Source of the DNA: Desulfoluna spongiiphila
Lineage (GTDB): Bacteria; Desulfobacterota; Desulfobacteria; Desulfobacterales; Desulfolunaceae
DNA length: 32,000 bases
Direction of reading: 5' to 3'
Assembly (NCBI RefSeq): GCF_900101345.1
Contig: NZ_FMUX01000014.1
Span: 57,233 to 89,232, forward strand
Shown: positions 7,222-30,226 of the stretch, in pieces
How the letters are laid out: each line of letters opens with the position of its first letter
Position numbering within the stretch: position 1 is the first letter of the stretch
Notes under the pieces: model-generated
Told to the model about the DNA's origin: nothing
Seen by the model: only the letters and a program-made list of their open reading frames with translations
The model's database searches: none
Made by a program: the position numbers and the translations under genes

Positions 7222-7375
7222 AAAAAGCGCTGCCTCCGGTGGGCAGGGGCTTTTATCTTAGTGTGGCTTCGCCACCCCCTGCACCCCGGGTTCGCGAATG
7301 CTCCGAGTCCTCGTTCCTCGGTCTCGTCACATTTGCTGACGGTCTTCATGATTTTGAGACCTGTTTGTCAAACCC
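7222..7375 (-). repeat. modular intergenic repeat, degenerate copy in reverse orientation (head-to-head with the next copy)
   Basis: AAAAAGCGCTGCCTCCGG start. Terminal GC hairpin 7232-7250 followed by TTTT. Reverse-complement hairpin A is GCGAATGC...CCTCGTTCCTCGG...CACATTTGC (7294-7336). Ends with CCTGTTTGTCAAAC (7360-7373). Confidence 0.8.
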
Positions 7376-7387
7376 AGCGCATAGAAA

Positions 7388-7537
7388 TTGACAAAAGGTT
7401 GGCAAACAGGTTTTAAAAAACAGATTCAGTATAGCCTGGATCAAAGGCGGATGTGATTTTTCCCGAGGAACGAGGGGAAAAACGCATTCGTAACCTGCTT
7501 TCAATGTGGCACACCTTGCCGCCGGAGGCAGCTTTTT
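7388..7537 (+). repeat. modular intergenic repeat, forward copy (L remnant plus complete R module)
   Basis: TTGACAAAAGGTTGGCAAACAGGTTTTAAAAAACAG, then GGCGGATGTGATTTTTCCCGAGGAACGAGGGGAAAAACGCATTCGTAACCTGCTTTCAATGTGGCACACCTTGCCGCCGGAGGC (12-mer at 7518-7529), then AGCTTTTT. Confidence 0.9.
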
Positions 7538-7580
7538 AGGCGCTGAATGGTTACGAAAATATTGATTTTTGGGTGCTCTT

Positions 7581-7597
7581 AAGCTAGTATGCTAACA
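7581..7597 (+). promoter_or_regulatory. 17-bp box AAGCTAGTATGCTAACA (copy 1), putative promoter -10 plus MarR operator upstream of marR
   Basis: Identical 17-mer recurs at 8174-8190. It contains TAGTAT (7585-7590) placed 17 nt after TTGATT (7562-7567), and lies 53 nt upstream of the marR ATG. Confidence 0.55.
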
Positions 7598-7649
7598 AAA
7601 AACAACCCGGCGGTTCTGCCCCGTCTCATTTTACCCCAAGGAAGATACC

Positions 7650-8087
7650 ATGAAAGGGATCGATCCCAATGAAAGCCTCGGTTTCCAATGCAACCTTACG
7701 GTGAAATTCTTTGTGGGATCCCTTGAAGAGAGGTTGAAAGGAACCGGGGTGTCGCCATCTCAGCACCGGGCCCTGGCCCACCTGATCGCTTTGGGCCCCC
7801 TGCCTCTCACCGACCTGGTGAAACGGCTGGGCATCGCCACGCCCACCGGCGTGCGCCTGGTGGACCGCATGGAGCGAGACGGATGGGTGACCCGGGAGCC
7901 GGATCCTGAAGACAGCCGACGGAAAATGCTTGTCCCCACGGAAAAGGCCCATGAGGTCTGGGAAACCATTTCGGTTGTCTCTAAGGAGATGCTGACTCAG
8001 GCATATCGAGGGATTCCCCCCGAAGAGATCGAAAAGGCCATTGAGGTGCTGGAGAGGGTTCGGGAAAACCTGGCAGATTTTTCTTGA
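7650..8087 (+). CDS. MarR-family transcriptional regulator
   Basis: 145 aa with AAGGAAG RBS. Winged-helix region is LSPSQHRALAHLIALGPLPLTDLVKRLGIATPTGVRLVDRMERDGWVTREPDPEDSRRKML. Confidence 0.9.
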   Translation: MKGIDPNESLGFQCNLTVKFFVGSLEERLKGTGVSPSQHRALAHLIALGPLPLTDLVKRLGIATPTGVRLVDRMERDGWVTREPDPEDSRRKMLVPTEKAHEVWETISVVSKEMLTQAYRGIPPEEIEKAIEVLERVRENLADFS

Positions 8088-8107
8088 AACCACAGTGGTT
8101 ATAGTTG

Positions 8108-8166
8108 GCGCGGCAGTAACCAGCTTGCAAGGTGGTTCACCTTGCGCTCAATAGTCACCTTTTTTT
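8108..8166 (+). repeat. partial R-module (3' half) of the intergenic repeat family, terminator-like
   Basis: GGCGCGGCAGTAACCAGCTTGCAAGGTGGTTCACCTTGCG aligns with GCGCAGCGGTAACCAGCTTTCAAGGTGGCTCACCTTGCC at 15296-15334. Hairpin is GCAAGGTG (8127-8134) with CACCTTGC (8138-8145); T7 at 8160-8166. Confidence 0.7.
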
Positions 8167-8173
8167 ATTTAAA

Positions 8174-8190
8174 AAGCTAGTATGCTAACA
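8174..8190 (+). promoter_or_regulatory. 17-bp box AAGCTAGTATGCTAACA (copy 2) upstream of the split-permease operon
   Basis: Exact repeat of 7581-7597. It ends 16 nt before the permease ATG (8207) and includes the same TAGTAT hexamer. Confidence 0.55.
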
Positions 8191-8206
8191 TTACAGGAAG
8201 GGGTAT

Positions 8207-8686
8207 ATGCTGAACGCCATTCTTTACCTGGCAGCCTTCGCGCTGCTTCTGGCCTCCTACGTCAAAGACAAAAAGAAGACCCGGACGGCGCTTCTGAAGG
8301 CCTGGAAATCATTTGAGAACCTGTTGCCCCAGTTTCTCGTCATTCTTCTGGTCATCGGGATCCTGCTGGCGGCAGTCAGCCCTGAAACCATCACCCTTGT
8401 TTTGGGACAGAACACAGGCTGGGTCGGTATGGGCATGGCCGCGCTCATCGGTTCTGTGACCCTTATTCCCGGTTTTGTGGCTTTTCCGCTTACGGCGGCC
8501 CTTTACGAAAACGGGGGAGGGCTCATGCAGCTGGCCGTGTTTGTTTCCACCCTCATGGGGGTGGGAGTCGTAACCCTTCCTGTGGAGATGGGGATTTTCG
8601 GGCTGCGGGTTTCCCTGGCACGCAATTTCTTGAACTTGCTGCTGGCCTTTGGGGTGGCTGCGATCATGGGGGTGGTGCTTACATGA
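8207..8686 (+). CDS. permease subunit 1 (half-size, DUF318/ArsP-like predicted permease)
   Basis: 159 aa with 4-5 TM helices and GGAAGGGG RBS. The stop overlaps the next start (ATGA at 8683-8686). GSVTLIPGFVAFPLTAALYENGGG resembles the repeat unit of two-part permeases. Confidence 0.6.
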   Translation: MLNAILYLAAFALLLASYVKDKKKTRTALLKAWKSFENLLPQFLVILLVIGILLAAVSPETITLVLGQNTGWVGMGMAALIGSVTLIPGFVAFPLTAALYENGGGLMQLAVFVSTLMGVGVVTLPVEMGIFGLRVSLARNFLNLLLAFGVAAIMGVVLT

Positions 8687-9207
8687 TATCTTTGCTTAAA
8701 CGATACCGGGCCTTCCTTCTGCTGCTCGTGGCCTTAGGGGGGCTTGGTTATTTCAACCCGACCCTTGCCGTTCGCTCCATCAGGCTTTCCACCGATTCCC
8801 TCGTGGAGATGATGCTGGTGATTCCACCCATTTTTGTGCTTCTGGGGATTTTTGATGTCTGGGTTCCCCGGGAAACCATCGTGAGACTCATGGGCGGGGA
8901 GTCCGGTGCCAAAGGGACTCTTCTGGCCCTTTGTCTGGGGTCTTTTGCTGCAGGACCGCTCTACGCTGCGTTTCCTGTGGCCGGGGTGCTGATCAAAAAA
9001 GGGGCGCGCTTTTCGAATATCATGATTTTTATCGGGGCCTGGTCCACCACCAAGATTCCCATGCTTCTTTTTGAAGCCTCATCCATGGGCTGGGATTTTA
9101 TGCTGTGCCGACTGGTGATGAACTTGACGGGAATCATTGTCATTGCGCATATTCTGGATGTGTTCTTGCCTGAGCAGTACAAAGCCCTGGCCCCTTCGGA
9201 ATTTTGA
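8683..9207 (+). CDS. permease subunit 2 (half-size, DUF318/ArsP-like predicted permease)
   Basis: 174 aa polytopic protein. GSFAAGPLYAAFPVAGVLIKKGARF parallels the motif in subunit 1. Translationally coupled to 8207-8686. Confidence 0.6.
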   Translation: MISLLKRYRAFLLLLVALGGLGYFNPTLAVRSIRLSTDSLVEMMLVIPPIFVLLGIFDVWVPRETIVRLMGGESGAKGTLLALCLGSFAAGPLYAAFPVAGVLIKKGARFSNIMIFIGAWSTTKIPMLLFEASSMGWDFMLCRLVMNLTGIIVIAHILDVFLPEQYKALAPSEF

Positions 9208-9261
9208 CGTGCCTGGCGATGTTATGTGATTGTGCCTTAGTCGAATGGTGACGTAAAGACA

Positions 9262-9394
9262 TGGGCGAAGGCAGATTCCTCGGGCGAATCATATTCGCCC
9301 CTGATTTTGAGTGGCCTGAATCTGTTTTTAAAAAAGCCTGTTTATTAAGCTTTTTTAAAAGTTTAGCCCCCGGCAGGGCCGCCGGAGGCTTTTT
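9262..9394 (-). repeat. intergenic repeat, 5'-truncated composite (hairpin-A relic plus complete L module)
   Basis: Hairpin GGGCGAAT-CAT-ATTCGCCC (9282-9300). Then GAATCTGTTTTTAAAAAAGCCTGTTTATTAAGCTTTTTTAAAAGTTTAGCCCCCGGCAGGGCCGCCGGAGGC (12-mer at 9378-9389) and TTTTT. Near-identical to 22951-23022. Confidence 0.9.
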
Positions 9395-9406
9395 CCGCTT
9401 TACTCC

Positions 9407-10123
9407 TTATTTCTTCCCCCCGCCCAGGTAAGCTTCCCGGACGCTGGGGTTGGCCAGGAGGGCGTCGGCGTCGTCTTCCAATACGATGCGGCCCACCTCC
9501 ATGACGTAGCCCCGGTGGGCGAGTTTGAGGGCGGCCTTGGCGTTTTGTTCCACCAGGACCACGGTGACCCCGCTTTTGTTGATTTCGGCCACGGTCTCGA
9601 AGATGGCTTTCACCAGGATGGGGGCAAGGCCCAAGCTCGGTTCGTCCAGAAGGAGGATCCGGGGGTTGTTCATGAGGGCTCTGCCGATGGCGAGCATCTG
9701 CTGTTCGCCGCCGGAAAGGGTCCCTGCCAGCTGGCTTTTCCGCTCTTTCAGGCGGGGAAAGAGCTCAAAAATCCAGCGCCGGGTCTCTTCCACCCGCTTG
9801 GGGTTCTTGGCGGTGAAGGCGCCCAGGTTGAGGTTTTCCTGGACGGTTAAGGTGGAGAAGACGCGGCGGCCCTCCGGGGACTGGGTGAGTTTTTCCTCCA
9901 CCACCTTGTGGGCGGGCATGGTGTGGATGGGTTTTCCGTCGAACCAGATTTCGCCCTCCGAGGGTTTCAAGAGCCCGCTGATGGTCATGAGGGTGGTGGA
10001 TTTCCCGGCGCCGTTGGCCCCTAAGATGGTGACGATCTCTCCCTCTTCCACCTGCAGGTTGATGCCGTGAAGGGCTTCGACGGTGCCGTATTTCACATGG
10101 AGATTTTTTACGTCTAAAAGCAC
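9407..10123 (-). CDS. livF: branched-chain amino acid ABC transporter ATP-binding protein LivF
   Basis: 238 aa with GTG start. Walker A GANGAGKST, signature LSGGEQQML, Walker B LLLDEPSLGLAP. Ends ...REAYLGG, typical of LivF. Confidence 0.9.
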   Translation of the reverse strand: MLLDVKNLHVKYGTVEALHGINLQVEEGEIVTILGANGAGKSTTLMTISGLLKPSEGEIWFDGKPIHTMPAHKVVEEKLTQSPEGRRVFSTLTVQENLNLGAFTAKNPKRVEETRRWIFELFPRLKERKSQLAGTLSGGEQQMLAIGRALMNNPRILLLDEPSLGLAPILVKAIFETVAEINKSGVTVVLVEQNAKAALKLAHRGYVMEVGRIVLEDDADALLANPSVREAYLGGGKK

Positions 10124-10899
10124 GTCTCACCCTCCTCCTCGTCATCGGTGCCGAGGTAGGCTTCGATGACCTTCTTGTTGGTCTTTATCTCTTCGGGCAG
10201 TCCTTCGGCAATTTTCTTGCCGTATTCAATCACCACCAGTTTTTCGCAGGCCTGCATCACCAGGCTCATGTCGTGTTCGATGAGGAGCACGGTGATGCCG
10301 CGCGCCTTGATGCGGGCGATGATCTCGATTAAGGCGTCGGTCTCCTGCTCGTTCATGCCCCCTGCCGGTTCGTCCAGGATGAGGAGCTTGGGCTGGGTGG
10401 CCAGGGCCCTGGCGATCTCCAGGAGGCGCTGGTTGCCGTAGGAGAGGCTGTCGGAACGGGTTTCCGCTTCTTCCCCCAGGCCAACGAAGTCCAGCTCGGC
10501 CAGGGCGAGTTGGATGGCCTCTTTTTCTTCCCGTTTTTGAAAGGGTGTCTTCAGCATGGCGGCGATGGAGCCTGAAGTCATGCGGCAGTGGCACCCGGCC
10601 AGGACGTTTTCAAGGGCCGAGAGGGTCTTGAAGAGCCGGATGGTCTGAAAGGTCCGGGCAACGCCTAAGGAGACGATCCTGTTGGGGGCCAGTCCGTTGA
10701 GGGGCTGGCCGTTAAAGAGCACCTTGCCGTGGTTCGGCACGTAGTTGCCGGTGATGAGGTTGAAGACCGTGGTCTTGCCCGCCCCGTTGGGGCCGATGAG
10801 GCCGAAGACGTCTCCGGCCTCCACCTCAAAGGAGACCTCGTCCACGGCCCTTAAGCCGCCGAAGTCCTTGATCAGGTTGTCGAGTTTTAACAGGCTCAC
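10114..10899 (-). CDS. livG: branched-chain amino acid ABC transporter ATP-binding protein LivG
   Basis: 261 aa with GTG start overlapping the livM stop (GTGA). Walker A GPNGAGKTT, LSYGNQRLLEIARAL, LILDEPAGGMN, IEAYLG. Confidence 0.9.
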   Translation of the reverse strand: MSLLKLDNLIKDFGGLRAVDEVSFEVEAGDVFGLIGPNGAGKTTVFNLITGNYVPNHGKVLFNGQPLNGLAPNRIVSLGVARTFQTIRLFKTLSALENVLAGCHCRMTSGSIAAMLKTPFQKREEKEAIQLALAELDFVGLGEEAETRSDSLSYGNQRLLEIARALATQPKLLILDEPAGGMNEQETDALIEIIARIKARGITVLLIEHDMSLVMQACEKLVVIEYGKKIAEGLPEEIKTNKKVIEAYLGTDDEEEGETCF

Positions 10900-11954
10900 G
10901 GCATCTCCTCCCGGACTTTCATCTCTTCTCTAAGTTTCATCTCTTTGCGGATCTTTTTAAGGGGGTATTTCCTGGGCAGGGGAGGCAGGAGCCCTTCGTT
11001 TCTGAAAATCATCATGATCACCATGGCCGCGCCGAAGATCAGCATGCGGGCCTGGCTGAAGTTGCTGAAGTCAAGGGACAGGGTGACGCCGAAGTTTAAA
11101 AAGAGGCTGTTGATCAGGTCGCTGACGGCGCCCATGCCCCGGAAGATTTCGGGCAGGCCGATGACGAGAAATGCCCCCAGGATGACCCCCCGGATGCTTC
11201 CGGAGCCCCCTAAGATGACGATCATGAACATCACCACCGACTCCCAGAAGTTGAAGGACTCCGGGGCGATGATGGTCATCTTGGCCGCGTAGATGGTTCC
11301 CACCATGCCGGCCCACACCGCGCCCAGCACAAAGGCGATGAGTTTGTAGTAGGTGGTGTTGATGCCGCTGCCTTCGGCGGCCACGTCGTCTTCCCGCAGG
11401 TAGTTTAAGGCCCGGCCGAACCGGGAGTTTTCCAGGCGGTGAAAGAGAAAGACCGTCACCGCCATGAATCCCCAGATGAGATAAAAGAACTCGTGGGGCT
11501 TTCGGATCTTGAAGCCGAAGAGGTACGGGCGGTCGATGCCGAAGATGCCGTTGGCCCCTCCGGTGATGCCGAAGACGTTGTTGATGAGGGCGATGCGCAC
11601 GATCTCCACAAAGCCGATGGTGACGATGAGGAGGTAGTCCCCACGCAGGTGGATGATGGGACGTGCCACGATCAGGGCCACGAGCCCTGCCGTGATCCCT
11701 GCCACGGGCATGAGCCAGAGGACGGGGATGTCAAAGGTGGTGTTCAAGATGGCGGTGGTGTAGGCACCCACGGCGTAAAAGGCCGCGTGGCCCATGTGGA
11801 ACAGGCCGGCATGGCCCAGGATGATGTTGAGGCTCAAGGCCAGAAGGGCGTACATGCCGACGTTGTTCAGCACGTCCACCCAGTAGGCGTTGAGAAAGGC
11901 CGGGGAGACGGCCAGAAGTGATGCAAGTGCTAGGTAAATGGCGTTTCGTTTCAT
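10896..11954 (-). CDS. livM: branched-chain amino acid ABC transporter permease LivM
   Basis: 352 aa polytopic protein. LNIILGHAGLFHMGHAAFYAVGAY is the LivM/LivH-type motif. Confidence 0.88.
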   Translation of the reverse strand: MKRNAIYLALASLLAVSPAFLNAYWVDVLNNVGMYALLALSLNIILGHAGLFHMGHAAFYAVGAYTTAILNTTFDIPVLWLMPVAGITAGLVALIVARPIIHLRGDYLLIVTIGFVEIVRIALINNVFGITGGANGIFGIDRPYLFGFKIRKPHEFFYLIWGFMAVTVFLFHRLENSRFGRALNYLREDDVAAEGSGINTTYYKLIAFVLGAVWAGMVGTIYAAKMTIIAPESFNFWESVVMFMIVILGGSGSIRGVILGAFLVIGLPEIFRGMGAVSDLINSLFLNFGVTLSLDFSNFSQARMLIFGAAMVIMMIFRNEGLLPPLPRKYPLKKIRKEMKLREEMKVREEMP

Positions 11955-12046
11955 ACGGTCAAGGCCTCGCTAAAAAAATCTGTCCAGGGATTGGTGGGGT
12001 GAGCCGTCAGGGGCCCAAAGGCGGCCCCTGTGTTTCGGAAACCCCG

Positions 12047-12952: not shown

Positions 12953-13192
12953 CTTACTTCTCCGGTGGTGCCGACGCCCCGGCAACACCGGATGACCCGA
13001 TGCCGCCGGGGCGTGTTGGGATTTTTATTGACCGGGCCATTTGGACTTACCCCGGGGGCTTTGTCTGTCCTGGGTAACGTGCGGCAGGAGGGCCTGCGCC
13101 CTGCCGTCACCTGAACTGTTGCCGGGTCAATAACCTGTGCGGGGGCCGCCGTGAGCTCCTTGGCCGGAAAGCCGCCCCACGCGACTCACGCC

Positions 13193-14308: not shown

Positions 14309-14856
14309 AAACACATCTCCTCATTGTTTGGTCTCGGTGTGACGGGATCCGGCCCCACCCGGATCCGGGTGGACAGTGGATAAGCGCCATGCAGATCGGC
14401 GTCAGCCCAGCGGCTGGCCACCTGCTTACCCTGTCCGGTCATGCCTAAAGAGCTTGGCGCCTCAAGTTATCTCATATTACTATTATGCGTTAGTGACGAG
14501 ATATGACGAGGCCCGTACGTAAGCCGATGAACCCATGGGCACATTGCCACAACGCTTTATGGAAACGGTACGCGGAAAGCTGGATGTAGCGTTGGGGTTG
14601 GGTTGTCCTTACGAAGGGTTATTTAACTCGTATTTTTACAAAACATCAAGTTTTTTATATGGATTGCTCTGTATTGACTCTCTGAAATGTTCCTTGATTT
14701 GCGGCCTGATTTACAGGGGCGTAGGTGATATGGATCTAATATTACGATTGATATTGCGGGGAATTTAGAAATTGATGGGCGATGTTGCCTGCAACCCGGT
14801 GATGGTAATAATGGGATCGTCCGGGGAACGCACGGGTTGACGCCTTGGGGATTCTG

Positions 14857-14880
14857 TATTATCGTAATATTACGATAATA
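14857..14880. promoter_or_regulatory. perfect 24-bp palindrome TATTATCGTAAT|ATTACGATAATA, putative ArsR operator overlapping the arsR promoter
   Basis: Perfect dyad seen directly. It lies 19 nt upstream of the GTG start of arsR and overlaps a candidate -10 (TATCGT) placed 17 nt after TTGACG (14837-14842). A half-site TAATATTACGAT recurs at 14737-14748. Confidence 0.7.
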
Positions 14881-14898
14881 GAAACGAAGGAGAAAACC

Positions 14899-15198: not shown

Positions 15199-15260
15199 GT
15201 CATAGGTAAAGAGGGAATAGGGGCTCAGACAAAAAATGAATATACACGTCACGCATGAAT

Positions 15261-15352
15261 GCCGCTGTGATTTAACCCGAGGAACGAGGGGTAAAGCGCA
15301 GCGGTAACCAGCTTTCAAGGTGGCTCACCTTGCCGCCGGAGGCATTGTTTTT
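15261..15352 (+). repeat. intergenic repeat, complete R module between arsR and hgcA
   Basis: GCCGCTGTGATTTAACCCGAGGAACGAGGGGTAAAGCGCAGCGGTAACCAGCTTTCAAGGTGGCTCACCTTGCCGCCGGAGGC (12-mer at 15332-15343), then ATTGTTTTT. Confidence 0.9.
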
Positions 15353-15392
15353 GTAGGCTTTTTTGTACCGTCTTAGAGAATAGGGTGGGAGT

Positions 15393-15439
15393 ATTCGCAA
15401 CCCAGGGTTTCAAGGGCTCAGCCCTTGGCCACCGTAGGC
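15393..15439 (+). repeat. degenerate R-module 3' half immediately upstream of the hgcA RBS
   Basis: ATTCGCAACCCAGGGTTTCAAGGGCTCAGCCCTTGGCCACCGTAGGC aligns with the consensus CATTCGCAACCTGCTTTCAAGGTGGCACACCTTGCCGCCGGAGGC. Hairpin CAAGGGC-TCA-GCCCTTG at 15411-15427. Confidence 0.65.
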
Positions 15440-15461
15440 TCGTTTGACAAGGAGTCCGTCA

Positions 15462-16604: not shown

Positions 16605-16616
16605 GGAGGTGTTCCC

Positions 16617-16904: not shown

Positions 16905-16980
16905 GGCCTAGGGGAAACGTTTTTTTATAATCAACGTCGGGGGGATGACAGAGCCACAGAGGGCGTAGGAAAAAAAGCAC

Positions 16981-17121
16981 GCCTCCGGCGGCAAGGTGGG
17001 GGCACCTTGAAACCTTATGGCGAATGCATGGAGGCCGTCGTTGTGCGGGCGTTGTCGGGGCATTCGCGTGAAGGATGACATTCGGCAACCGTCTCGGCAG
17101 GAGACACCCATGTCATTCTTC
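16981..17121 (-). repeat. variant structured element V1 (related to the R module, with three hairpins)
   Basis: Starts GCCTCCGGCGGCAAGGTGGGGGCACCTTG. Hairpins: CAAGGTG/CACCTTG (16992-17009), GCGAATGC/GCATTCGC (17020-17067), GAAGGATGACAT/ATGTCATTCTTC (17070-17121) enclosing GTCTC/GAGAC. Paralogous to 28572-28709. Confidence 0.85.
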
Positions 17122-17150
17122 TAAAAACATGATGTAACTATTCAGCTTAT

Positions 17151-17328
17151 GCCTCCGGCGTCCCTGTGGGGGGCTAAGCTTTTAAAAAGTTTGACAAATA
17201 GGTCATAAAAAACCGTCTGAACCAATGACGATTTATAAGCGGATGTGATTTGACCCGAGGCACGAGGGGCAAAACGCATTCGCAACCTGCTTTCAAGGTG
17301 GCACACCTTGCCGCCGGAGGCAGCTTTT
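17151..17328 (+). repeat. intergenic repeat, complete composite (L-rc plus R)
   Basis: GCCTCCGGCGTCCCTGTGGGGGGCTAAGCTTTTAAAAAGTTTGACAAATAGG...GCGGATGTGATTTGACCCGAGGCACGAGGGGCAAAACGCATTCGCAACCTGCTTTCAAGGTGGCACACCTTGCCGCCGGAGGC (17310-17321), then AGCTTTT. It abuts the stop codon of the TRIC gene. Confidence 0.92.
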
Positions 17329-17332
17329 ACGT

Positions 17333-17950
17333 TTACGCGTTTCCTTTATACAAAAGGAACCGTGGGTAGTAGAGATCCCAGTGGATGGAGGCGCATCGCA
17401 GGCCGAAGGCCAGGGCCAGGCCGTAGTAGCGGTTAAAGGGGTGGTCGGGTGCCAGGTGGAGGAGGACGCAGAAAAGGGACGCACCGAGGAGGGCGGGGGT
17501 GGCGTAGAACTCCCGGCCCAGGAGCAGGGGCATCTTGCCGGTGAGGATGTCGCGGATCATGCCCCCTGCGATGCCGGTGGTCAGGCCCATGAGGACGGCC
17601 ACCGGGTAGGAGAAGCCCAGCGAGAGGGCCTTTTCCGCGGCGGTGATGGTAAACAGGCACATGCCGAAGGAGTCGGCATAGAGAAAGAGGGTGTAGGTGT
17701 TGTTGACAAAGCGGATAAAGAAAAAGGCGATGAGGGCGGCGGCCACGGAGACCCAGAGGTAGGTCTCGTCCCCGATCCAGAAGATGGGGTTGGCGTCCAT
17801 GAGGATGTCCCGGATGGTCCCGCCGCCGAGGGCTGTCACCACCCCCAACAGGATGATGCTGAAAAGATCCATGTCTTTTTTGCCTGCGGCCACCACTCCC
17901 GTGACGGAGAAAGCAGCGATGCCCATCATGCCGATAAGATAGATGATCAT
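17333..17950 (-). CDS. trimeric intracellular cation channel (TRIC/UPF0126, YadS-like) family membrane protein
   Basis: ATG at 17950 (MIIYLIGMMGIAAFSVTGVVAAGKK), 205 aa. Duplicated glycine motifs ALGGGTIRDIL and GIAGGMIRDIL are characteristic of UPF0126. The 412-aa ORF-track extension overlaps arfB in another frame. Confidence 0.85.
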   Translation of the reverse strand: MIIYLIGMMGIAAFSVTGVVAAGKKDMDLFSIILLGVVTALGGGTIRDILMDANPIFWIGDETYLWVSVAAALIAFFFIRFVNNTYTLFLYADSFGMCLFTITAAEKALSLGFSYPVAVLMGLTTGIAGGMIRDILTGKMPLLLGREFYATPALLGASLFCVLLHLAPDHPFNRYYGLALAFGLRCASIHWDLYYPRFLLYKGNA

Positions 17951-17961
17951 GAGTCCATACC

Positions 17962-18378
17962 TTAATGGGAGACTTTTCCCCGTGTTTTTTTCAGGTCGCC
18001 GCGTTGGGTCTTGGCCTTGAGGCGTCTTTCCCGGGCATTTTTCGAGGGCCGGGTGGGGCGCCTTTTTTTCGGCGCCTTGGTCACGCTTTGGATCAGGCTG
18101 ATGAGTCGCTCCAGGGCGGCCTGCCGGTTCATCTCCCGGCTGCGGTGCTCCCGGGACTTGATGATCACGATGCCCTCGTCGGTGATGCGATGGTCGGTGA
18201 TGGCCAGGAGCCGCTCCTTGTAGACCTCCGGCAGGGAGGACGCCCGGATGTCGAACCGCAGGTGAATGGCCGTGGCCGAGGTGTTGACGTGCTGGCCACC
18301 GGGGCCCGATGCCTTGACTGCGGAGATCTCCACCTCGTCGTCGCCAAGGGAGAGCTGCTGTGAGATTATGATTGGCAA
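17962..18378 (-). CDS. arfB: alternative ribosome-rescue factor ArfB (YaeJ, peptidyl-tRNA hydrolase)
   Basis: 138 aa with GGQ motif (SGPGGQHVNTSATAIHLRFDIRASSLPEVYKERLL) and a basic C-terminal tail (KKRRPTRPSKNARERRLKAK...). In-frame TTG start lies 7-8 nt after AGGAG. Confidence 0.9.
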   Translation of the reverse strand: MPIIISQQLSLGDDEVEISAVKASGPGGQHVNTSATAIHLRFDIRASSLPEVYKERLLAITDHRITDEGIVIIKSREHRSREMNRQAALERLISLIQSVTKAPKKRRPTRPSKNARERRLKAKTQRGDLKKTRGKVSH

Positions 18379-18393
18379 AACATAGACTCCTGT

Positions 18394-19593
18394 TTATTCT
18401 TTTGCGCCGTGGTACCACGCCGCGATGGCTGCAGCCGCCTCGCTCGAATCGATGTTGGGTACGGTAAACAGGGGCGGGGCGTCCACGGCCTTGTAAACCT
18501 TGTCGTAGTAGTCCACCATCACCTCTTTGAGAAATCCGCGGTAGTCTCCCGCGTCGATGGCTGCACACCACCTCTCCACCGTCTCTTTTCCCACCCGCCG
18601 CGTGAGAAAGCGTACCGCCTCCTTGACCATCTCTTCCACCTCTTTGCCACCCTTGCCGAAATACTCTTTTTCCAGTCGGGCCAGCCGGGTCTCAAGGGGG
18701 CAGGTGAGGCCGATGTGCGTCTCCTTTGCAAGGGCCTTGCAGATGGACGGGGGCAGGTTGAACCGGCCGATTTTTTTGCTCTCCATCTCGGTGAGGAAGG
18801 GGGGCAGGCTGCCGTCGGCGTTTCGGTGCTGCAGGAGGTTGACGTAGAGGTTGGTCTCAAAGTCCCGCTGGCTCTTGGCCAGGGATTCCCCCATGAGGTT
18901 GAAGCGGATTTCGCCAAAGACCGAGGCGGCGTGGCCTGCCGCGGCCTCCAGGTGGAGGGCGGGCAGGTCCCGGTTGTTCGCCTGGATGTACTCCAGCAGC
19001 TCGGATTTTCCGCAGCCGGTCTGGCCGGAGAGGGGGTAGAGGGTGATCTCCTGTTCGTAGAGCATGGTGTGCACCTCTTTTCGGAAGGCCTTCTGGCCCC
19101 CGTTGAGGCGTACGGCGTCGATGCCGTTTTTGTTGAGCATGCTGGTGGTGTAGCGGCTTCGTCCCCCGCCGCGCCAGCAGTAGAGAATCACCGGGCCGCC
19201 CTGGGCCAGCTTCCGGACCTTTTCGAGGTAGGCCTCCTCTTTCTGTTTGGCCAGGTACCAGGCATAGGAGAGGGCCAGGTCCTTGTCGTGGCGCTTGTAG
19301 ATGAGCCCAACCTGATGGCGTTCCGTGTTGGTGAGGATGGGGATGTTCACGGCAAAGGGGAGGCGCTCCCGTTCAAACTCCGCCTCGGATCGCACGTCGA
19401 TGAGGGTGTACGGCCCTTTTTTCCCATGGGCGAAATCGGTGAGGATCTCCGTAAATCCGTCCTGGGGCATCACCCGTTCAATGGCGGCGATGTCCTTGAA
19501 GTGAACGTGGGGAAGATCCAAGGGGAGCACCTGCTTGAGCAGTGCGTCGAGCTCCTCCTTCTGGTCGTGGTTGTCGGTGTCGCTATGGGTCAT
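18394..19593 (-). CDS. selU: tRNA 2-selenouridine synthase (SelU/MnmH)
   Basis: 399 aa. Rhodanese-like domain with active-site loop YCWRGGGRS, then P-loop SGQTGCGKSELL. Architecture matches SelU. 15 nt upstream of arfB. Confidence 0.85.
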   Translation of the reverse strand: MTHSDTDNHDQKEELDALLKQVLPLDLPHVHFKDIAAIERVMPQDGFTEILTDFAHGKKGPYTLIDVRSEAEFERERLPFAVNIPILTNTERHQVGLIYKRHDKDLALSYAWYLAKQKEEAYLEKVRKLAQGGPVILYCWRGGGRSRYTTSMLNKNGIDAVRLNGGQKAFRKEVHTMLYEQEITLYPLSGQTGCGKSELLEYIQANNRDLPALHLEAAAGHAASVFGEIRFNLMGESLAKSQRDFETNLYVNLLQHRNADGSLPPFLTEMESKKIGRFNLPPSICKALAKETHIGLTCPLETRLARLEKEYFGKGGKEVEEMVKEAVRFLTRRVGKETVERWCAAIDAGDYRGFLKEVMVDYYDKVYKAVDAPPLFTVPNIDSSEAAAAIAAWYHGAKE

Positions 19594-20506: not shown

Positions 20507-20710
20507 AGCTTATGCCTCCGGCGGCCCTGCCGGGGGCTAAACTTTTGCCTGATTAATAAAAAACGTGTTTAACAAACAGGCCTAAAAAAACTGCTTGAAT
20601 GCATTTCGCTTTAAAGGCGGATGTGCTTTGACCGGCGAGGGCCGGGGGGCAAAGCGCATCCGCAACCTGCTTTCAAGGTGGCATACCTTGCCGCCGGAGG
20701 CTGTTTTTTT
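20507..20710 (+). repeat. intergenic repeat, complete composite (L-rc plus R) in a divergent promoter region
   Basis: AGCTTATGCCTCCGGCGGCCCTGCCGGGGGCTAAACTTTTG...GTTTAACAAACAGG...GGCGGATGTGCTTTGACCGGCGAGGGCCGGGGGGCAAAGCGCATCCGCAACCTGCTTTCAAGGTGGCATACCTTGCCGCCGGAGGC (20690-20701), then TGTTTTTTT. Confidence 0.92.
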
Positions 20711-20881
20711 GTGCTGAATCGTTGCAAAACATTTTAGTATAGGCCCCTGGCATGGCACCGTAAAGAAGATTGTTGTGCGGGCTTGTCTCTGCAGGCGGAA
20801 TACGGTAAAAGTGGGGAATTTCTTTAAAATATCGATTTTATCGCAATAGGGCGGTCATCGTATCGCCCGGGGAGTGTCGTT

Positions 20882-22819: not shown

Positions 22820-22883
22820 AGAGCGCGACGGGCGATCTGGAACACCTGATTAAAAGAAGCCTTCTATGGTTAAAGTTGGGTAG

Positions 22884-23030
22884 AAAAAGTTTGCCTCCGG
22901 CGGCGAGGTGAGCCATCTTGAAAGCTGGTTGCGGATGTGACCCAGGCTGGACGGAATCTGTTTAAAAAAAACTGTTTATTAAACTTTTTAAAAGTTTAGC
23001 CCCCGGCAGGGCCGCCGGAGGCATCGCTTT
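22884..23030 (-). repeat. intergenic repeat, composite in reverse orientation (R-rc with deleted hairpin A, plus L)
   Basis: AAAAAGTTTGCCTCCGGCGGCGAGGTGAGCCATCTTGAAAGCTGGTTGCGGATGTGA...CTGTTTATTAAACTTTTTAAAAGTTTAGCCCCCGGCAGGGCCGCCGGAGGC (23011-23022), then ATCGCTTTT. Confidence 0.9.
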
Positions 23031-23056
23031 TGTGCCTTGTATTTTTGCGCCGCCCT

Positions 23057-23224: not shown

Positions 23225-23744
23225 GGAATCGACCTCTTATTTATGAGGTGTTGCGATACATGGGCGGATAAGCCCGGGGGCGGGGGCCGCCCCTTTGCAC
23301 CCCCTGCGGGTGCACCAGAAAGATAGGGCGTGCGCGGGGGGGTGTCAATGCAAAAAGTTAGGCTCACCGAAAAGTATTTTGTAAAAAAAGAAGAGTTCCT
23401 GATTGTCCAGGTAGGTTGTTTTTATGTTTAACAGACTGAAATAATATCTTTATCTACGCCTCTGTCTTCGTGACGAGGTATCGTTGAAGGTCTGAAATCG
23501 TTGAAAAAAAGAGTTGCATGGGGTGAGACGGTGTGCTATCAACCCCATAAAAACTTTGGCTTGCCAAAAAGAAGGCTTCCCGAAGGACACCGTGAGGCCA
23601 TCGTTCCCCGAAGGCACCTCCCCGCAGACAAGATGCGGCAGGCAAGCAGGTCGGGGGCGCCTGTTCCGGCAGTTGGATCAGGCAGCGGCGGCGTGGGGCA
23701 TGATGTCCCGTTTTATCTTTTCTTAACGGCAGTGTGATGCTGGC

Positions 23745-24002: not shown

Positions 24003-24093
24003 CTCCGGTGGTCCGGCAAAGGCGGCCCCTTGACTTAATAAGGCCGGCCTGGACCCATGCATTGACATCTTACACAGGTAAATAGAACTGATC

Positions 24094-26256: not shown

Positions 26257-26274
26257 ACCAGGGGCTGAGCCCTG

Positions 26275-26317
26275 GCGAATGCTTCGAACCCTCGTTCCTC
26301 GGGCTCCTCACATTCGC
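26275..26317 (-). repeat. isolated hairpin-A fragment of the repeat family, right after the feoB stop
   Basis: GCGAATGCTTCGAACCCTCGTTCCTCGGGCTCCTCACATTCGC is nearly identical to 7294-7336 and is the reverse complement of the R-module hairpin A (loop GAGGAACGAGG). Confidence 0.8.
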
Positions 26318-26376
26318 TGACGGGCTACGCCCGTGAATACCGGTCTGAGAAGCCTCACCCTAATTGACAGAATAAG

Positions 26377-26427
26377 AATGCCGTTGCGATTTGCCTTTAC
26401 GGGTGACGCGTAACGGCATTTTTTTTT
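26377..26427 (+). terminator. intrinsic terminator-like hairpin downstream of feoB
   Basis: AATGCCGTT (26377-26385) pairs with AACGGCATT (26412-26420), followed by a long T run to 26427. The loop is large (26 nt), which lowers confidence. Confidence 0.55.
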
Positions 26428-26472
26428 GCTGGGCGCTCTCATGCCCACACCCTTAAGGGGGGTGTGAAAGAT

Positions 26473-26652
26473 GCCTCCGGCAGCCCTTCCGTGGGGCAAC
26501 CTTTTGAAACGGTGGATAAACAGGTTTTGGAAATAGGTTCGGTTTAATCTGAATCAATGGCGACTGTGTTTTTCCCTGAGGAACGAAGGGGAAAGCGCAA
26601 TTCGCAACCTGCTTTCGAGGTGGCACACCTCGCCGCCGGAGGCTGTTTTTTT
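26473..26652 (+). repeat. intergenic repeat, complete composite (L-rc plus R)
   Basis: GCCTCCGGCAGCCCTTCCGTGGGGCAACCTTTTGAAAC...GGCGACTGTGTTTTTCCCTGAGGAACGAAGGGGAAAGCGCAATTCGCAACCTGCTTTCGAGGTGGCACACCTCGCCGCCGGAGGC (26632-26643), then TGTTTTTTT. Confidence 0.9.
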
Positions 26653-26715
26653 CGGTGATTTTAACCATAGAAGGCAACGCTTGAAAAGGTGCCCTCTCGC
26701 CTGTAAAATGCCCCC

Positions 26716-27492
26716 ATGAACATGAAACTCTTTGATACCCATGCCCACCTTCAGGACCCCCGTATGGCGGACACCATGGACGCCATGATGGACCGAGCCC
26801 GCAAGATCGGGGTGACCCGGATTCTTTCCTGCGGTACCCGGGAAGAGGACTGGGGGGCGCTCACGGCCCTAGCCGGGCGTCATCCCGAGATTCTTCCTGC
26901 CTACGGTGTTCACCCCTGGTTCATCGAGACCCTTTCCCCGGACTGGGTGAACGCCCTGGGTCAACGGTTGACGGAAAGTCAGGCCGCCGTGGGAGAGATC
27001 GGCCTTGATTTTGTGGTGGAAGGCCTTGACCGGGGCAAGCAGGAGGCGGTCTTCCTGGCCCAGCTCAGGCTGGCCCGATCCCTGAAACGGCCGGTTTCCA
27101 TCCACTGCCGGAAGGCCTGGGGCCGCATGGTGGAGCTCTTGAAGCAGGAGGGCGGACTGCCCCACGGCGGCGCCATCCACTCCTTCTCCGGATCCGTGGA
27201 GATGGTCAGGGAGTTTGAACGCCTCGGCGTTTTTTTCTCTTTTTCCGGTTCCATCACCCGCCCCAACAACCTCAAAGCCAAAAAAGCCGCTGCCGCAGCC
27301 TCCCCGGATCGCCTCCTCATTGAAACCGACAGCCCCGATATCCTTCCGGAAAATGCCCCCGGCCCTTTGAATGAACCGGCCCATGTGATACAAGTCGTGA
27401 CCACCCTGGCAACCGTACGCAAGACCACCCCTGAAAAGGTGGCCGACATAACGTGGAATAACGCGGTGGGGTTGTTTGGTTCGGGAGATTAG
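26716..27492 (+). CDS. tatD: TatD-family metal-dependent hydrolase/DNase
   Basis: 258 aa. N-terminal KLFDTHAHLQD, then GEIGLDF, SIHCR, AIHSFSGS, ETDSPD - the TatD metal-ligand motifs in order. Confidence 0.88.
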   Translation: MNMKLFDTHAHLQDPRMADTMDAMMDRARKIGVTRILSCGTREEDWGALTALAGRHPEILPAYGVHPWFIETLSPDWVNALGQRLTESQAAVGEIGLDFVVEGLDRGKQEAVFLAQLRLARSLKRPVSIHCRKAWGRMVELLKQEGGLPHGGAIHSFSGSVEMVREFERLGVFFSFSGSITRPNNLKAKKAAAAASPDRLLIETDSPDILPENAPGPLNEPAHVIQVVTTLATVRKTTPEKVADITWNNAVGLFGSGD

Positions 27493-27501
27493 GGAAAGGG
27501 C

Positions 27502-27755
27502 AAAAAGACAGCCGCCGACGGCAAGGTGTGCCGCCTTGAAAGCTGGTTGCGGATGTGTTTTGCCCCTTGCTTGTCGCTCCGTAGCCCATTGACGTGGGGC
27601 GAATGGGGCCACATAGACACGGGCGTAGGTGGATTCATCGGGTCACATCACATCCGCTTTTAATGTAAAATTCATTCAAAAAGATTTTTTAAAACCTGTT
27701 TGTTAAACTTTTTAAAAGTTTAGCCCTCGGCAGGGCCGCCGGAGGCTGCTTTTTT
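27502..27755 (-). repeat. intergenic repeat, reverse composite with about 90-nt insertion inside hairpin A
   Basis: AAAAAGACAGCCGCCGACGGCAAGGTGTGCCGCCTTGAAAGCTGGTTGCGGATGTG (27549-27557 arm)...CACATCCGC (27649-27657 arm)...CCTGTTTGTTAAACTTTTTAAAAGTTTAGCCCTCGGCAGGGCCGCCGGAGGC (27735-27746), then TGCTTTTTT. Confidence 0.88.
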
Positions 27756-27780
27756 ATTATAAGAAGGCGATACAAAAGAC

Positions 27781-28533
27781 ATGACGACATCAAAGCGCCA
27801 TGCGCGTACTGAGCAGCTCCTCGGGGAAGAGGGGCTGGAGACGTTGAAGGGAGCCCACGTGACGATATGCGGGCTGGGGGCTGTGGGCTCTTTTGCGGCG
27901 GAGGCCCTGGCACGGGCTGGGGTAGGGCACCTTTCCCTGGTGGATTACGACGTGGTGAGCGAGAGCAATATCAACCGTCAGCTCTACGCCCTCACCTCCA
28001 CCGTGGGCCAGAAAAAATCGGCTGTGGCCGAGGCGAGAATCAAGGACATCAACCCCGAGTGCAAGGTCACCATCTTTGATTGCTTCATCGACGAAGAGAC
28101 CACCGAGGCCATCCTCGATCGGCCTATGGACGTGGTGGTGGACGCCATCGACAGCCTCTCCTCAAAGGTCCATCTGATTTTAAATGCCAAAGAGCGCGGC
28201 ATCCCCACGGTATCCAGCATGGGCGCTGCCGGAAAAATAGACGCCAACGCCATCACTTGTGGCGATCTCTCCGAGACCCAGGTCTGCGGCCTGGCCAAAA
28301 GCGTCCGGCGCAGGCTCCACAGGAAGGGGCTCTATGAGGGCGTCCGCTGTGTCTATTCCACCGAACCCTCCCGCAAAAATCCCTCCACGACAGGAGAAGA
28401 ACCCTCCGACGACGGCTTCCGCGTTGCCCCCGTTCTTGGCAGCATTTCGTATCTGACGGCCATCTTCGGTCTTAAGGCTGCGGGGGAGGCCATTGGGATT
28501 ATTCTTAAAAAAGAGCATGGAGAAGGGCATTGA
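27781..28533 (+). CDS. tcdA: tRNA threonylcarbamoyladenosine (t6A) dehydratase TcdA/CsdL (ThiF/E1-like)
   Basis: 250 aa. RTEQLLGEEGLETLKGAHVTICGLGAVGSFAAEALARAGVGHLSLVDYDVVSESNINRQ matches the TcdA N-terminal Rossmann signature. Confidence 0.8.
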   Translation: MTTSKRHARTEQLLGEEGLETLKGAHVTICGLGAVGSFAAEALARAGVGHLSLVDYDVVSESNINRQLYALTSTVGQKKSAVAEARIKDINPECKVTIFDCFIDEETTEAILDRPMDVVVDAIDSLSSKVHLILNAKERGIPTVSSMGAAGKIDANAITCGDLSETQVCGLAKSVRRRLHRKGLYEGVRCVYSTEPSRKNPSTTGEEPSDDGFRVAPVLGSISYLTAIFGLKAAGEAIGIILKKEHGEGH

Positions 28534-28571
28534 TCATCTGTCTTCAATGGTCAATATGGGGTGGGAAATAC

Positions 28572-28709
28572 GCCTTCGGCGGCGCGGTGGGGGCACCTTG
28601 AAACCCTGTGGCAAATGCATGGAAGGGGGGATGGCGCGACCCTTATCGGGGCATTGGCGTGATGGGTGACAGGGTGCAACCGTCTTCGCAAGGAAGACGG
28701 GTTTCACCT
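28572..28709 (-). repeat. variant structured element V2 (paralog of V1)
   Basis: GCCTTCGGCGGCGCGGTGGGGGCACCTTGAAACCCTGTGGCAAATGCATGGA...GGGGCATTGGCGTGATGGGTGACA...CCGTCTTC-GCAAG-GAAGACGG (28680-28700)...GTTTCACC is collinear with 16981-17121. Confidence 0.85.
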
Positions 28710-28773
28710 TTCGGTGTCGTTGTTTCTGGCAAGGTGCCGAAAAATGACTGGGCTGTCGTATTCTTACGAAAAA

Positions 28774-28812
28774 AGCCCTCAGTCGATCTGTCAGGATCGG
28801 CTGGGGGCTTTT
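28774..28812 (+). terminator. strong intrinsic terminator-like hairpin (plus-strand polarity)
   Basis: AGCCCTCAGTCGATC (28774-28788), loop TGTCAG, GATCGGCTGGGGGCT (28795-28809): 15 bp including two T-G pairs that are wobbles only on the plus strand. Followed by TTTT and preceded by AAAAA. Confidence 0.7.
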
Positions 28813-28854
28813 GTCATATGGGCGCTACAGGAAAGGGTCAAACTACAGATAAAT

Positions 28855-28947
28855 GCCGCTGTGATTTAACCCGAGGGGCGAGGGGTAAAGCGCTGCGGCA
28901 ACCCGCTTTCAAGGTGGCACACATTGCCGCCGGAGGCCTCGCTTTTT
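28855..28947 (+). repeat. intergenic repeat, complete R module
   Basis: GCCGCTGTGATTTAACCCGAGGGGCGAGGGGTAAAGCGCTGCGGCAACCCGCTTTCAAGGTGGCACACATTGCCGCCGGAGGC (28926-28937), then CTCGCTTTTT. Closest to the copy at 15261-15352. Confidence 0.9.
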
Positions 28948-29008
28948 GTCTGTTTTATTTTTGCACCGACCCTAAGGCAAAGCCCCGGGCAGAGGCTTTG
29001 CCGCGTGC

Positions 29009-29596
29009 TTACAATTTTTCCAGGAACCTCACCAGGTGACGGTGGAATGTTTCGGTCTGGTTGAGGTAGGTGGGGTGGCCGCCTTCGGGGAGGATCACCA
29101 CCTCGCTGTCTGCCAGGACGCTGTCCAGGATGTGGGCGTTTTCCACGGGGACGATGGGGTCGTTGTCGCCCCAGATGATGAGGAAGGGCAGGGAGGTGCC
29201 CTTGAGGGCTCCGGCATTTTCGGGGATGCCCAAAGGTGCCGGGGCCACCACGGCGGTGAAGTCCGAGGGGTGTTCGGAGATGACGGGCAGGGCGTATTCA
29301 CCGCTGAAGGAGGGGGCCACGATGATGGGGGCGGTGGCGCCCAAGGCCTCGATGATCAGAGGGAGGACCTGCTCTTTTTCGATGTCGGCAGCCGGGGACT
29401 CGCCGTAGCCGGGGAGGTCCACGGCGATGGCGTCAAAGCCTTTGTCGGCGAGCAGATCAAGGGTACCCAGCTCTTCCCAGTTGAGGGATGAGAAACGCAT
29501 TCCGTGAAGGAAGATAACGCTCTGTTTGTTCCCTTCGCCGCTTCTGCGAAGAAAGATATCGGTTTCCTGAATACGAATGGTCTGATGGTTGGGCAT
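29009..29596 (-). CDS. alpha/beta-fold hydrolase
   Basis: 195 aa with GAGGAG RBS. HG oxyanion motif (VIFLHGMRFS), nucleophile-elbow-like APSFSG, and a C-terminal His region (GGHPTYL). Confidence 0.75.
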   Translation of the reverse strand: MPNHQTIRIQETDIFLRRSGEGNKQSVIFLHGMRFSSLNWEELGTLDLLADKGFDAIAVDLPGYGESPAADIEKEQVLPLIIEALGATAPIIVAPSFSGEYALPVISEHPSDFTAVVAPAPLGIPENAGALKGTSLPFLIIWGDNDPIVPVENAHILDSVLADSEVVILPEGGHPTYLNQTETFHRHLVRFLEKL

Positions 29597-30043
29597 GGAT
29601 CACATCTCCTCATGGTTCTGATTTTTAAAAAAGTCGGTGTGCCTGTGAGGCGGTTGCACTGATGATGACTCCTTAGCTGATATATCAGATATCAGAAAGT
29701 TGTGAAAGCAGACATTTTTTCCGGGGGGCGGCTGGCCGTGGCGTCGCAAGCCCCGAAGGCATAAAGGGGGGACGCTCGGAACTCTCTTTTTTAATGGAAT
29801 ATGTGGCGTCTGTCATCTCCGGTGTTCTCATCAAGGCATCATCTGATGGTTAAGGAAACCATGAAACCGGCGAAAAACCAAGGACAAAAAGCGAGGCCGG
29901 TTGCATCCTTTTTTGGGGGGGGGATATAGATGGCTAAGGGCGAAAGGGCTTTGTTGCCGGAGGTTTTTTCCTGTTTGGCCCAGATACGGTATGTTTTTTG
30001 TAACTATTTGGCTTAAAAAACAGCTTTCTATGGGTGGAGTGCG

Positions 30044-30226
30044 AAAAAAAGCCTCCGGCGGCCAGGGGATGATCTTCTGGACCCCAGGATACAAATCATT
30101 TCACCCCTCGTTCCTCGGGGTGAAATGATTTGCGAAGGCTTCTGCAAAACCCAGGTAAAACCTTTTTGTTAAACTTTACAAAAGTTTAGCCCCCGGCGGG
30201 GCCGCCGGAGGCATAAGCTGAATAGT
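30044..30226 (-). repeat. intergenic repeat, reverse composite with a perfect 16-bp hairpin A
   Basis: AAAAAAAGCCTCCGGCGGCC...CAAATCATTTCACCCC (30092-30107), loop TCGTTCCTC, GGGGTGAAATGATTTG (30117-30132)...TTTGTTAAACTTTACAAAAGTTTAGCCCCCGGCGGGGCCGCCGGAGGC (30201-30212), then ATAAGCTGAATAGT. That outer tail matches 17137-17150 in reverse complement. Confidence 0.9.

Follow-up and report, generated by a model that had tools for sequence, protein, structure and literature searches.

Miniature inverted-repeat transposable elements (MITEs) derived from bacterial insertion sequences (IS), such as MITEAba12, and the Correia elements of Neisseria, are short, non-coding and present in high copy number, have terminal inverted repeats (TIRs) and target-site duplications, lie mostly in intergenic regions and in either orientation, form long hairpins and are polymorphic between strains. 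All of these general properties are common to a family of repeats in the genus Desulfoluna, which is described here from a 32,000-nt stretch of the Desulfoluna spongiiphila genome (positions 57,233 to 89,232 of contig NZ_FMUX01000014.1, assembly GCF_900101345.1), hereafter called the window. The repeats are apparently an undescribed family of non-coding elements that consist of interchangeable hairpin modules and fill the intergenic gaps of Desulfoluna, and we consider it likely that they are a Desulfoluna-specific superfamily of MITEs together with the rearranged remains of these. The family is new in sequence; the kind of genomic parasite, a MITE, is already known and no new kind of system is involved. 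Correia elements duplicate TA, whereas the Desulfoluna units duplicate 8 bp, and the two are unrelated in sequence. Compared with IS-derived MITEs, the interior of the Desulfoluna elements is instead composed of interchangeable modules (L, several R types, S and U) with a common subterminal 12-mer, and the terminal repeats are missing from most copies, either through loss or because they were never there.

Enterobacterial bacterial interspersed mosaic elements (BIMEs) are mosaics of repetitive extragenic palindromes (REPs), and each REP is a single palindrome of 20-40 nt with a GTAG head that is moved by a REP-associated tyrosine transposase (RAYT) without target duplication. The Desulfoluna repeats are alike in forming intergenic mosaics of palindromes in alternating orientation, with variable linkers, enrichment at the 3' ends of genes and conserved hairpins, but their modules are larger and contain several hairpins, and both TIRs and duplications are found with intact units. 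Neisserial intergenic mosaic elements, the units of which are bounded by the 20-bp dRS3, a phage/recombinase target, and the pneumococcal BOX elements with their A-, B- and C-type boxes are alike in modularity, as different internal units are bounded by one short repeat (dRS3 there, the 12-mer here). There is, however, no sequence similarity, and the short repeat of Desulfoluna lies within the transposon end.

Intact units have terminal inverted repeats and target-site duplications

The modules are 55-95 nt long. Module R (∼90 nt) has three helices (P1, P2 and P3) and module L (∼56 nt) has two (H1 and H2). Module S consists of GCCTCCGGCGG-GTCGCTTTTTGAAAAAAGCTCCGC... followed by a variable long hairpin and is joined to L, and the U piece is a further module type that was found by profile search. 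An earlier note on this DNA had distinguished two module types only; apart from S and U, several R subfamilies occur, which differ in their P3 hairpins, P1 inserts and extra 5' pieces. All module types have in common the 12-mer GCCTCCGGCGGC, which the earlier note had taken for the terminus of the element. It is in fact subterminal and adjacent to the terminal repeat, and intact ends finish in GTAACTATTCAGC. This motif, here called T, is a 13-bp TIR, the extended form of which is written GTAACTATTCAGC(TTATGCCTCCGGCGG). Outside many module ends GCTGAATAGTTAC is found, at a distance of 4 or 8 nt from the end of L and of ∼12 nt, T-run included, from the end of R, and conservation ends directly after the T motif. 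The T-run after the R end, previously placed outside the element, sits within it.

Units were defined as inverted pairs of T motifs 60-450 bp apart, a duplication was called when at least 7 of 8 positions matched, and control positions were taken 10 nt further out. The resulting units were 89-433 bp long with GTAACTATTCAGC at both ends in inverted orientation, and the commonest intact forms were T-L(reversed)-spacer-R-T-run-T (∼212 bp) and T-S-L-T (∼255 bp). No open reading frame (ORF) of at least 80 aa with a Pfam match was present in the T-bounded units. An 8-bp duplication flanked 10 of 22 units in the genome loci and the window (controls 0/22) and 22 of 46 units in independent metagenome loci (controls 0/46), which gives 32/68 against 0/68 for both samples pooled. 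The duplicated target was usually A/T-rich.

A strain that is 99% identical to the window carries a 245-bp T-R-L-T unit at the position corresponding to 18386/18387, where the window is empty; the flanks of the unit are GACTCCTG and GGCTTCTG. The insertion sits between an RF-1-domain gene and a downstream gene with a rhodanese/SelU domain. The same strain has a second composite in tandem at 22893, which is attributed to recombination between two R starts, and these are the sole structural differences where the loci of this strain cover the window. Comparison of species revealed many orthologous gaps that are occupied in one genome but not in the other. The TIRs, the 8-bp duplications and the polymorphic insertion together identify the elements as MITEs. 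With the random orientation relative to genes, they also bear out the earlier suggestion of a BIME/Correia-like or MITE-like mosaic rather than ordinary terminators. In their mosaic look the elements resemble BIMEs, neisserial mosaic elements or BOX elements; a REP/RAYT-type mobilisation finds no support for the units with ends.

The elements are reshuffled after insertion: a tandem copy has been gained or lost between strains by recombination between modules, and truncations, foldbacks and an in-place hairpin inversion occur.

Repeat modules in the window

The R and L families were recovered independently by a repeat search of the window and by nhmmer profiles. The exact 12-mer GCCGCCGGAGGC occurs 14 times (10 on the plus and 4 on the minus strand), at every position given in the earlier note, while shuffled sequences give 0.02 occurrences; all of these copies fall inside R or L modules. 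Variants with one or two mismatches are present at 7232, 17151, 26473, 27511 and 28572. Instead of the at least 17 copies in 23 kb noted before, we counted at least 22 modules, distributed over 11 gaps between 7.2 and 30.3 kb, and the profile searches left the first 7.2 kb module-free, as previously described. Module-bearing gaps had been put at 11 of 14 'operon' gaps. The numerator was reproduced with gene calls that were checked against the annotation of the sister strain, but the denominator is 17 when all gaps beyond 7.2 kb with a length of at least 30 nt are counted. Two features proved genuine, the head-to-head arrangement at 7223-7537 and, within an R copy, the insertion at 27558-27648.

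With nhmmer, 15 R-type matches and 7 full plus 2 partial L-type matches were obtained, all within 7223-30229; R matches were scored with a profile of 92 copies. The features are as follows.

7223-7337, minus strand: R-type variant with a degenerate 12-mer at 7232-7243 and the P2 loop CGAGGAACGAG at 7310-7320 (R profile, E=3.3e-5).
7357-7414, no strand: degenerate L-like pieces forming a local hairpin between two R copies (weak L-profile matches, sequence reading).
7445-7554, plus strand: full R (7445-7537) with 12-mer and T-run, then an inverted T motif (7542-7554) (R profile, E=7.5e-28).
8108-8158, plus strand: truncated R, P3 hairpin only, without 12-mer; inverted T motif at 8146-8158 (repeat search, R profile, T-motif scan).
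9282-9389, plus strand: P1-like hairpin remnant (9282-9300) and full L (9333-9389) (profiles).
15213-15352, plus strand: solo R of the GCCGCTGTG subfamily with its own 5' extension; the R profile covers 15259-15352 (profile).
15388-15445, plus strand: partial R variant with an alternative P3 and the degenerate 12-mer GCCACCGTAGGC (R profile, E=1.2e-4).
16972-17099, minus strand: R variant with a different insert within stem P1, 78% identical to 28570-28690 (repeat search, profile).
17134-17329, plus strand: composite of T end (17134-17146), reversed L (17151-17204), spacer and R (17237-17329); right T end absent (profiles, folding, T-motif scan).
18386/18387, no strand: empty insertion site of the 245-bp T-R-L-T element of the 99%-identical strain (strain alignment).
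20514-20725, plus strand: composite in a divergent gap, with reversed L (20514-20583), R (20614-20710) and inverted T end (20713-20725) (profiles, T-motif scan).
22859-23031, minus strand: U piece (22859-22874), reversed truncated R (22884-22940) and L (22967-23022); the sister strain has an extra full tandem composite (profiles).
26257-26335, minus strand: R fragment lacking the 12-mer, which belongs to the GCGAATG subfamily, comprises an alternative P3, P1/P2 and an upstream hairpin P0, and directly adjoins the stop codon of feoB (repeat search, profile).
26473-26675, plus strand: composite of reversed L (26473-26528), R (26558-26651) and reversed U (26660-26675) (profiles, folding).
27502-27746, minus strand: composite of reversed R with ∼90 nt inserted within P1 (27502-27657) and L (27691-27746) (profiles, folding).
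28566-28690, minus strand: R variant, paralogue of 16972-17099 (repeat search, profile).
28805-28946, plus strand: solo R of the GCCGCTGTG subfamily with 5' extension (profile).
29992-30237, minus strand: complete MITE with duplication TGTTTTTT / TATTTTTT, T ends at 30000-30012 and 30217-30229, reversed R with alternative P3 (30044-30124) and L (30157-30212) (T-motif and duplication search, profiles).

At the position of 28805-28946 an R copy is also present in the orthologous locus (L065) of a metagenome-assembled genome (MAG) of the Desulfolunaceae.

Distribution across genomes and metagenomes

The earlier note had left room for an artefact confined to the window, which a wider scan addressed. 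A search for a degenerate R pattern, with each species represented by one genome, gave at least 83 loci, and all loci among the matches listed belonged to five Desulfoluna/Desulfolunaceae assemblies (D. limicola, D. butyratoxydans, two Desulfoluna-type MAGs and MAG GLD-1). The window and 635 kb of fetched loci, 667 kb in all, contained 217 R and 108 L matches, i.e. 325 modules, and at least 120 metagenome contigs contained module S. Identity of the window is 99% to a portion of the 6.68-Mb chromosome LR701292.1 and 79-85% to orthologous MAG loci. As the repeats are dispersed genome-wide and genus-wide, they are neither a local duplication nor an assembly artefact.

The impression that this is not a described family held. 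Rfam gave no match at the gathering score and just two chance-level matches at E up to 5, full-text literature searches for the 12-mer, the P2 loop and Desulfoluna repeats returned nothing relevant, and ARAGORN found no sign of a tRNA or tmRNA origin. In the plasmid collection the sole match was to 33 nt of the L hairpin, in unrelated plasmids. This stretch, ATGCCTCCGGCGGCCCTGCCGGGGGCCAAAC, occurs at 97% identity in L089:2501-2533 (plasmid NZ_AP022017.1) and in 15 other plasmid records, from Aeromonas, Klebsiella, Pseudomonas and Enterobacter. In the one record that was inspected its location is an unannotated region ∼500 nt downstream of a repA gene. Chance cannot account for a match of this length.

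Module structure and strand-specific covariation

In module R a long stem, P1/P2, is capped by the invariant loop GAGGAACGA and followed by a linker, the hairpin P3, the invariant tail CCGCCGGAGGC and usually a T-run. TTTT is found within 12 nt after 72% of R ends, and a hairpin with a T-run is present at 20% of L ends. Module L starts with the G+C-rich hairpin H1, which uses 9 nt of the 12-mer, and continues with the A/T-rich hairpin H2. The commonest adjacency is a reversed L with an R 30-40 nt later (70 adjacencies), so that both 12-mers face outward; the spacer from L to R is not conserved.

Among 276 exact 12-mers, 235 lay within R or L profile matches. Of the other 41, 40 were inspected and nearly all were situated behind the P3-type hairpin of an R variant or belonged to a truncated module, whereas for one of them (L007:6271) no preceding hairpin is obvious. 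A function as DNA uptake sequence was ruled out, as there is no population of free-standing 12-mers. A possible IHF site in L (WATCAANNNNTTR) was dropped, being present in just 2 of 67 copies.

Two unusual copies were observed in the fetched loci. At L010:3943-4037 the P2 hairpin of an R copy, i.e. the stem with the GAGGAACGA loop, is reverse-complemented in place within an otherwise unaltered module, which points to a DNA-level inversion at the hairpin. At about 2330-2372 of L025 a minimal foldback consists of a T motif, an A-run and GCCTCCGGCGGC-AAGGTGTGCCACCTT-GCCGCCGGAGGC; it represents two R ends fused at the P3 loop and forms an 18-bp perfect hairpin.

The covariation of R was measured on 92 full-length copies. 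In the R helices 93% of the cells were paired, against 36-42% in controls with the partner slid by 1-3 columns. Both sides had changed in 22 of 26 pairs, and none of 500 shuffles reached the observed values. In helix H2 of L, changes on both sides were seen in 6 of 9 pairs. The hairpins of both modules (P1, P2 and P3 in R, H1 and H2 in L) are thus kept by compensatory changes, and this on one particular strand. The non-Watson-Crick cells in the R stems comprised 119 G·U and 12 A·C, and 53 of 56 copies of H1 in L contain a U·G, the counterpart of which on the opposite strand would be a C·A mismatch. The excess of G·U over A·C in R, together with the U·G in H1, indicates that the strand reading from reversed L to R is the folded one. 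On the simplest reading, this strand-specific conservation belongs to those lineages from which new copies keep arising.

Folding predicts that the two 12-mers of a composite pair with each other and close the whole structure next to the T-run. For solo R copies a pairing of the 12-mer with GCUUUC..GGUGGC immediately ahead of the U-run is likewise predicted, which gives a 12-bp stem in the minimum-energy fold of common copies; this stem competes with P3, and the covariation backs P3. The fold of the top strand was the more stable one in four of six window composites, by 2.5 to 17 kcal/mol. A role for one strand of the L-R composite, as structured RNA or single-stranded DNA, can be envisaged, in which the GAGGAACGA loop and the 12-mer would be read by the mobilising machinery and propagation, especially of the T-less copies, would depend on structure. 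We regard this as rather unlikely; if true, propagation would need nucleic-acid structure in a way that is not known for IS66-type or other transposons that make TIRs and duplications.

Gene context and divergence between strains

In the loci selected for R, modules occupied 43 of 60 convergent, 105 of 233 tandem and 12 of 55 divergent gaps (Fisher p=1e-7), and just 17 of 325 modules were inside predicted genes. R modules in tandem gaps were oriented sense in 44 and antisense in 59 cases; the respective numbers were 15 and 20 for solo R and 7 and 17 for solo L. Hence, there was no sense bias of module orientation relative to transcription, nor was there an orientation bias between the GC-skew halves of the D. 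limicola chromosome.

Comparison of 99%-identical strains (window 7223-30229 against L084/L087) showed that modules differ by 1.43%, other intergenic DNA by 0.90% and coding DNA by 0.79% (p=0.05 and 0.002). Stronger conservation of modules between strains had been considered, and the opposite was observed; the higher divergence gives no sign of strong purifying selection on resident copies. Taken with the lack of a conserved promoter, the data on orientation, divergence and gaps are no less compatible with insertions being tolerated away from promoters than with a terminator function. A conserved promoter was not found: L contains a TTGACA-like motif without a -10 box at a fixed distance, and a consensus promoter scan detected no sense-strand promoter inside a module, the sole in-module match (9/12) being on the minus strand at 7457-7428.

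Likely source of the ends and mode of spread

ISDge4 of Deinococcus geothermalis, a member of the ISBst12 group of the IS66 family, has the ends GTGACTACTCAGCA / GTAACTGCTCAGCA and an 8-bp direct repeat (PMC12898284), and the inverted repeats of other IS66 elements begin with GTAA (PMC12888890). The end GTAACTATTCAGC(T) is identical to GTAACTGCTCAGCA of ISDge4 at 11 of 14 positions and both begin with GTAAC. T-bounded units thus combine the two characteristics of IS66-type elements, inverted repeats starting with 5'-GTAA and an 8-bp duplication. This resemblance of the ends to the ISBst12 group is a lead, not proof. The GTAAC start and the duplication length are shared, but unlike ISBst12 elements the Desulfoluna units have no transposase gene, and none with such ends was found in the sampled DNA. 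In ∼1.48 Mb of fetched DNA there was no pair of T motifs 0.8-4 kb apart with a duplication and no long intragenomic repeat; candidate ORFs beside T motifs lacked transposase domains and were ordinary genes (Na+/H+ antiporter, MnmE, aconitase).

As MITEs, the units would be moved by a DDE transposase supplied in trans, most likely one of the ISBst12 group, for which the terminal repeat, and probably the subterminal 12-mer GCCTCCGGCGGC as well, would serve as recognition sequence. Subsequent reshuffling would yield the BIME-like mosaics and may account for the many R and L copies without ends. Judging from the folding predictions, a transcript that crosses a composite in either direction would meet a large terminator-like structure. 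Copies would persist mainly where they are least harmful, downstream of genes.

Several observations weigh against this interpretation. Roughly 15% of the ends of R and 40% of those of L carry the T motif, the rest being without trace of it, and isolated R copies have no duplication at any fixed offset. Most copies may therefore have spread, or been cut down, by another route; the T-less R and L copies may be remnants of recombination and truncation, or may have spread by a second route. The duplication at the polymorphic 18386/18387 insertion is imperfect (6/8). No transposase gene with matching ends was found in the ∼1.48 Mb, so that the link to IS66/ISBst12 is drawn from the 11/14 end identity and the duplication length. 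A DDE mechanism needs no single strand and so does not account for the strand-specific conservation of hairpins in elements found in either orientation with respect to genes and replication. Furthermore, the loci were chosen for containing an R module, which biases densities and gap occupancies upward.

Alternative explanations

The modules could instead be regulatory RNA elements of the host, intrinsic terminators or stabilisers of the 3' untranslated region, that are under selection at gene ends and have arisen by convergence or duplication without being mobile. Such a role would suit the TTTT after 72% of R ends, the 12-bp stem of the 12-mer directly before the U-run, the predicted pairing of the 12-mers beside the T-run in composites, the enrichment in convergent gaps and the finding of some copies at the same position in different species. 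The covariation, however, favours P3, the competitor of the terminator stem, and the orientation in tandem gaps is not biased towards sense (solo R 15/20, solo L 7/17), so that the upstream gene is not the preferred side for the end that resembles a terminator. Copies are also found in divergent gaps, e.g. at 20514-20725 and 30000-30229 of the window, and the modules diverge more between strains (1.43%) than other intergenic DNA (0.90%). As mobility is in addition shown by TIRs, duplications and a strain-specific insertion, we consider a host regulatory origin unlikely. A small-RNA gene family on a mobile element is a further possibility, with the top strand of the composite from reversed L to R being transcribed, ending at the 12-mer and U-run and acting in trans, for example by titrating a protein via the invariant GAGGAACGA loop and the GGAGG-containing 12-mer. 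The same single strand is structured in both modules, the stems covary around an invariant loop and an invariant 3' tail, the 3' end resembles a terminator and top-strand folds are stabler in four of the six window composites. Nevertheless, a small RNA appears highly improbable, as there is no conserved promoter, the L-R spacer is unconserved, the TTGACA-like motif has no -10 box at a fixed distance, Rfam gives no match and the sequence upstream of solo R copies is unrelated among them.

The R and L modules might also be REP/BIME-type hairpins that are mobilised by a RAYT or an IS200/IS605-like HUH tyrosine transposase and were merely captured by the T-bounded MITEs. The invariant unpaired P2 loop and the 12-mer beside hairpins would suit recognition of a hairpin plus cleavage site, G·U (G·T) is tolerated on one strand only in the strand-specifically conserved hairpins, most copies lack TIR and duplication, and BIME-like mosaics occur in both orientations. 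Yet the modules are multi-hairpin structures of 55-95 nt and not single palindromes of 20-40 nt, their alignments contain no conserved GTAG-type head and their orientation is not biased between the two GC-skew halves of the chromosome of D. limicola. A tblastn search with E. coli RayT had a best E=0.77 in 1.48 Mb, a weak test given the small sample and the distant query. Intact ends moreover consist of a TIR and an 8-bp duplication, which HUH enzymes are not known to make. Overall, mobilisation of this kind seems quite unlikely to us.

Neighbouring genes and other features of the window

The genes of the window are ordinary chromosomal ones and include MerR, MarR, a Liv-type ABC transporter, ArsR, AOR, FeoAB, TatD, ThiF and others. 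A 412-aa ORF at 17333-18571 corresponds to two genes in the sister annotation, encoding a glycine-transporter-domain protein and an RF-1-domain protein. The 520-nt gap at 23225-23744, from a small FeoB-associated gene to feoA, is among the longest gaps but module-free; a leader or a regulatory region may be situated there. A 24-bp perfect palindrome, TATTATCGTAATATTACGATAATA (14857-14884), immediately precedes the ArsR-family gene, with a related half-site at about 14736-14755, 120 nt further upstream; the palindrome is probably the operator. The 15-mer AGCTAGTATGCTAAC occurs at 7582-7596 and 8176-8190, upstream of the MarR-family gene and of the next gene, in both cases directly after repeat modules, and is probably a MarR operator.

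Significance

As MITEs and their remains, the repeats would add a very dense, genus-wide family to the Desulfobacterota, whose repeats are little studied. In genomes and MAGs of Desulfoluna they offer convenient markers, both for the typing of strains and for problems of assembly. For annotation they carry a warning, as about half of the intergenic gaps contain terminator-like structures that are carried by transposons. The unusual part of the family is its strand-specific, covarying, modular interior, and hundreds of diverged copies, in which hairpins are kept on one strand despite insertion in either orientation, make it a natural data set. If this asymmetry reflects a requirement for propagation, it would bear on the movement of IS66/ISBst12-type elements, the mechanism of which is poorly known, or of their parasites.

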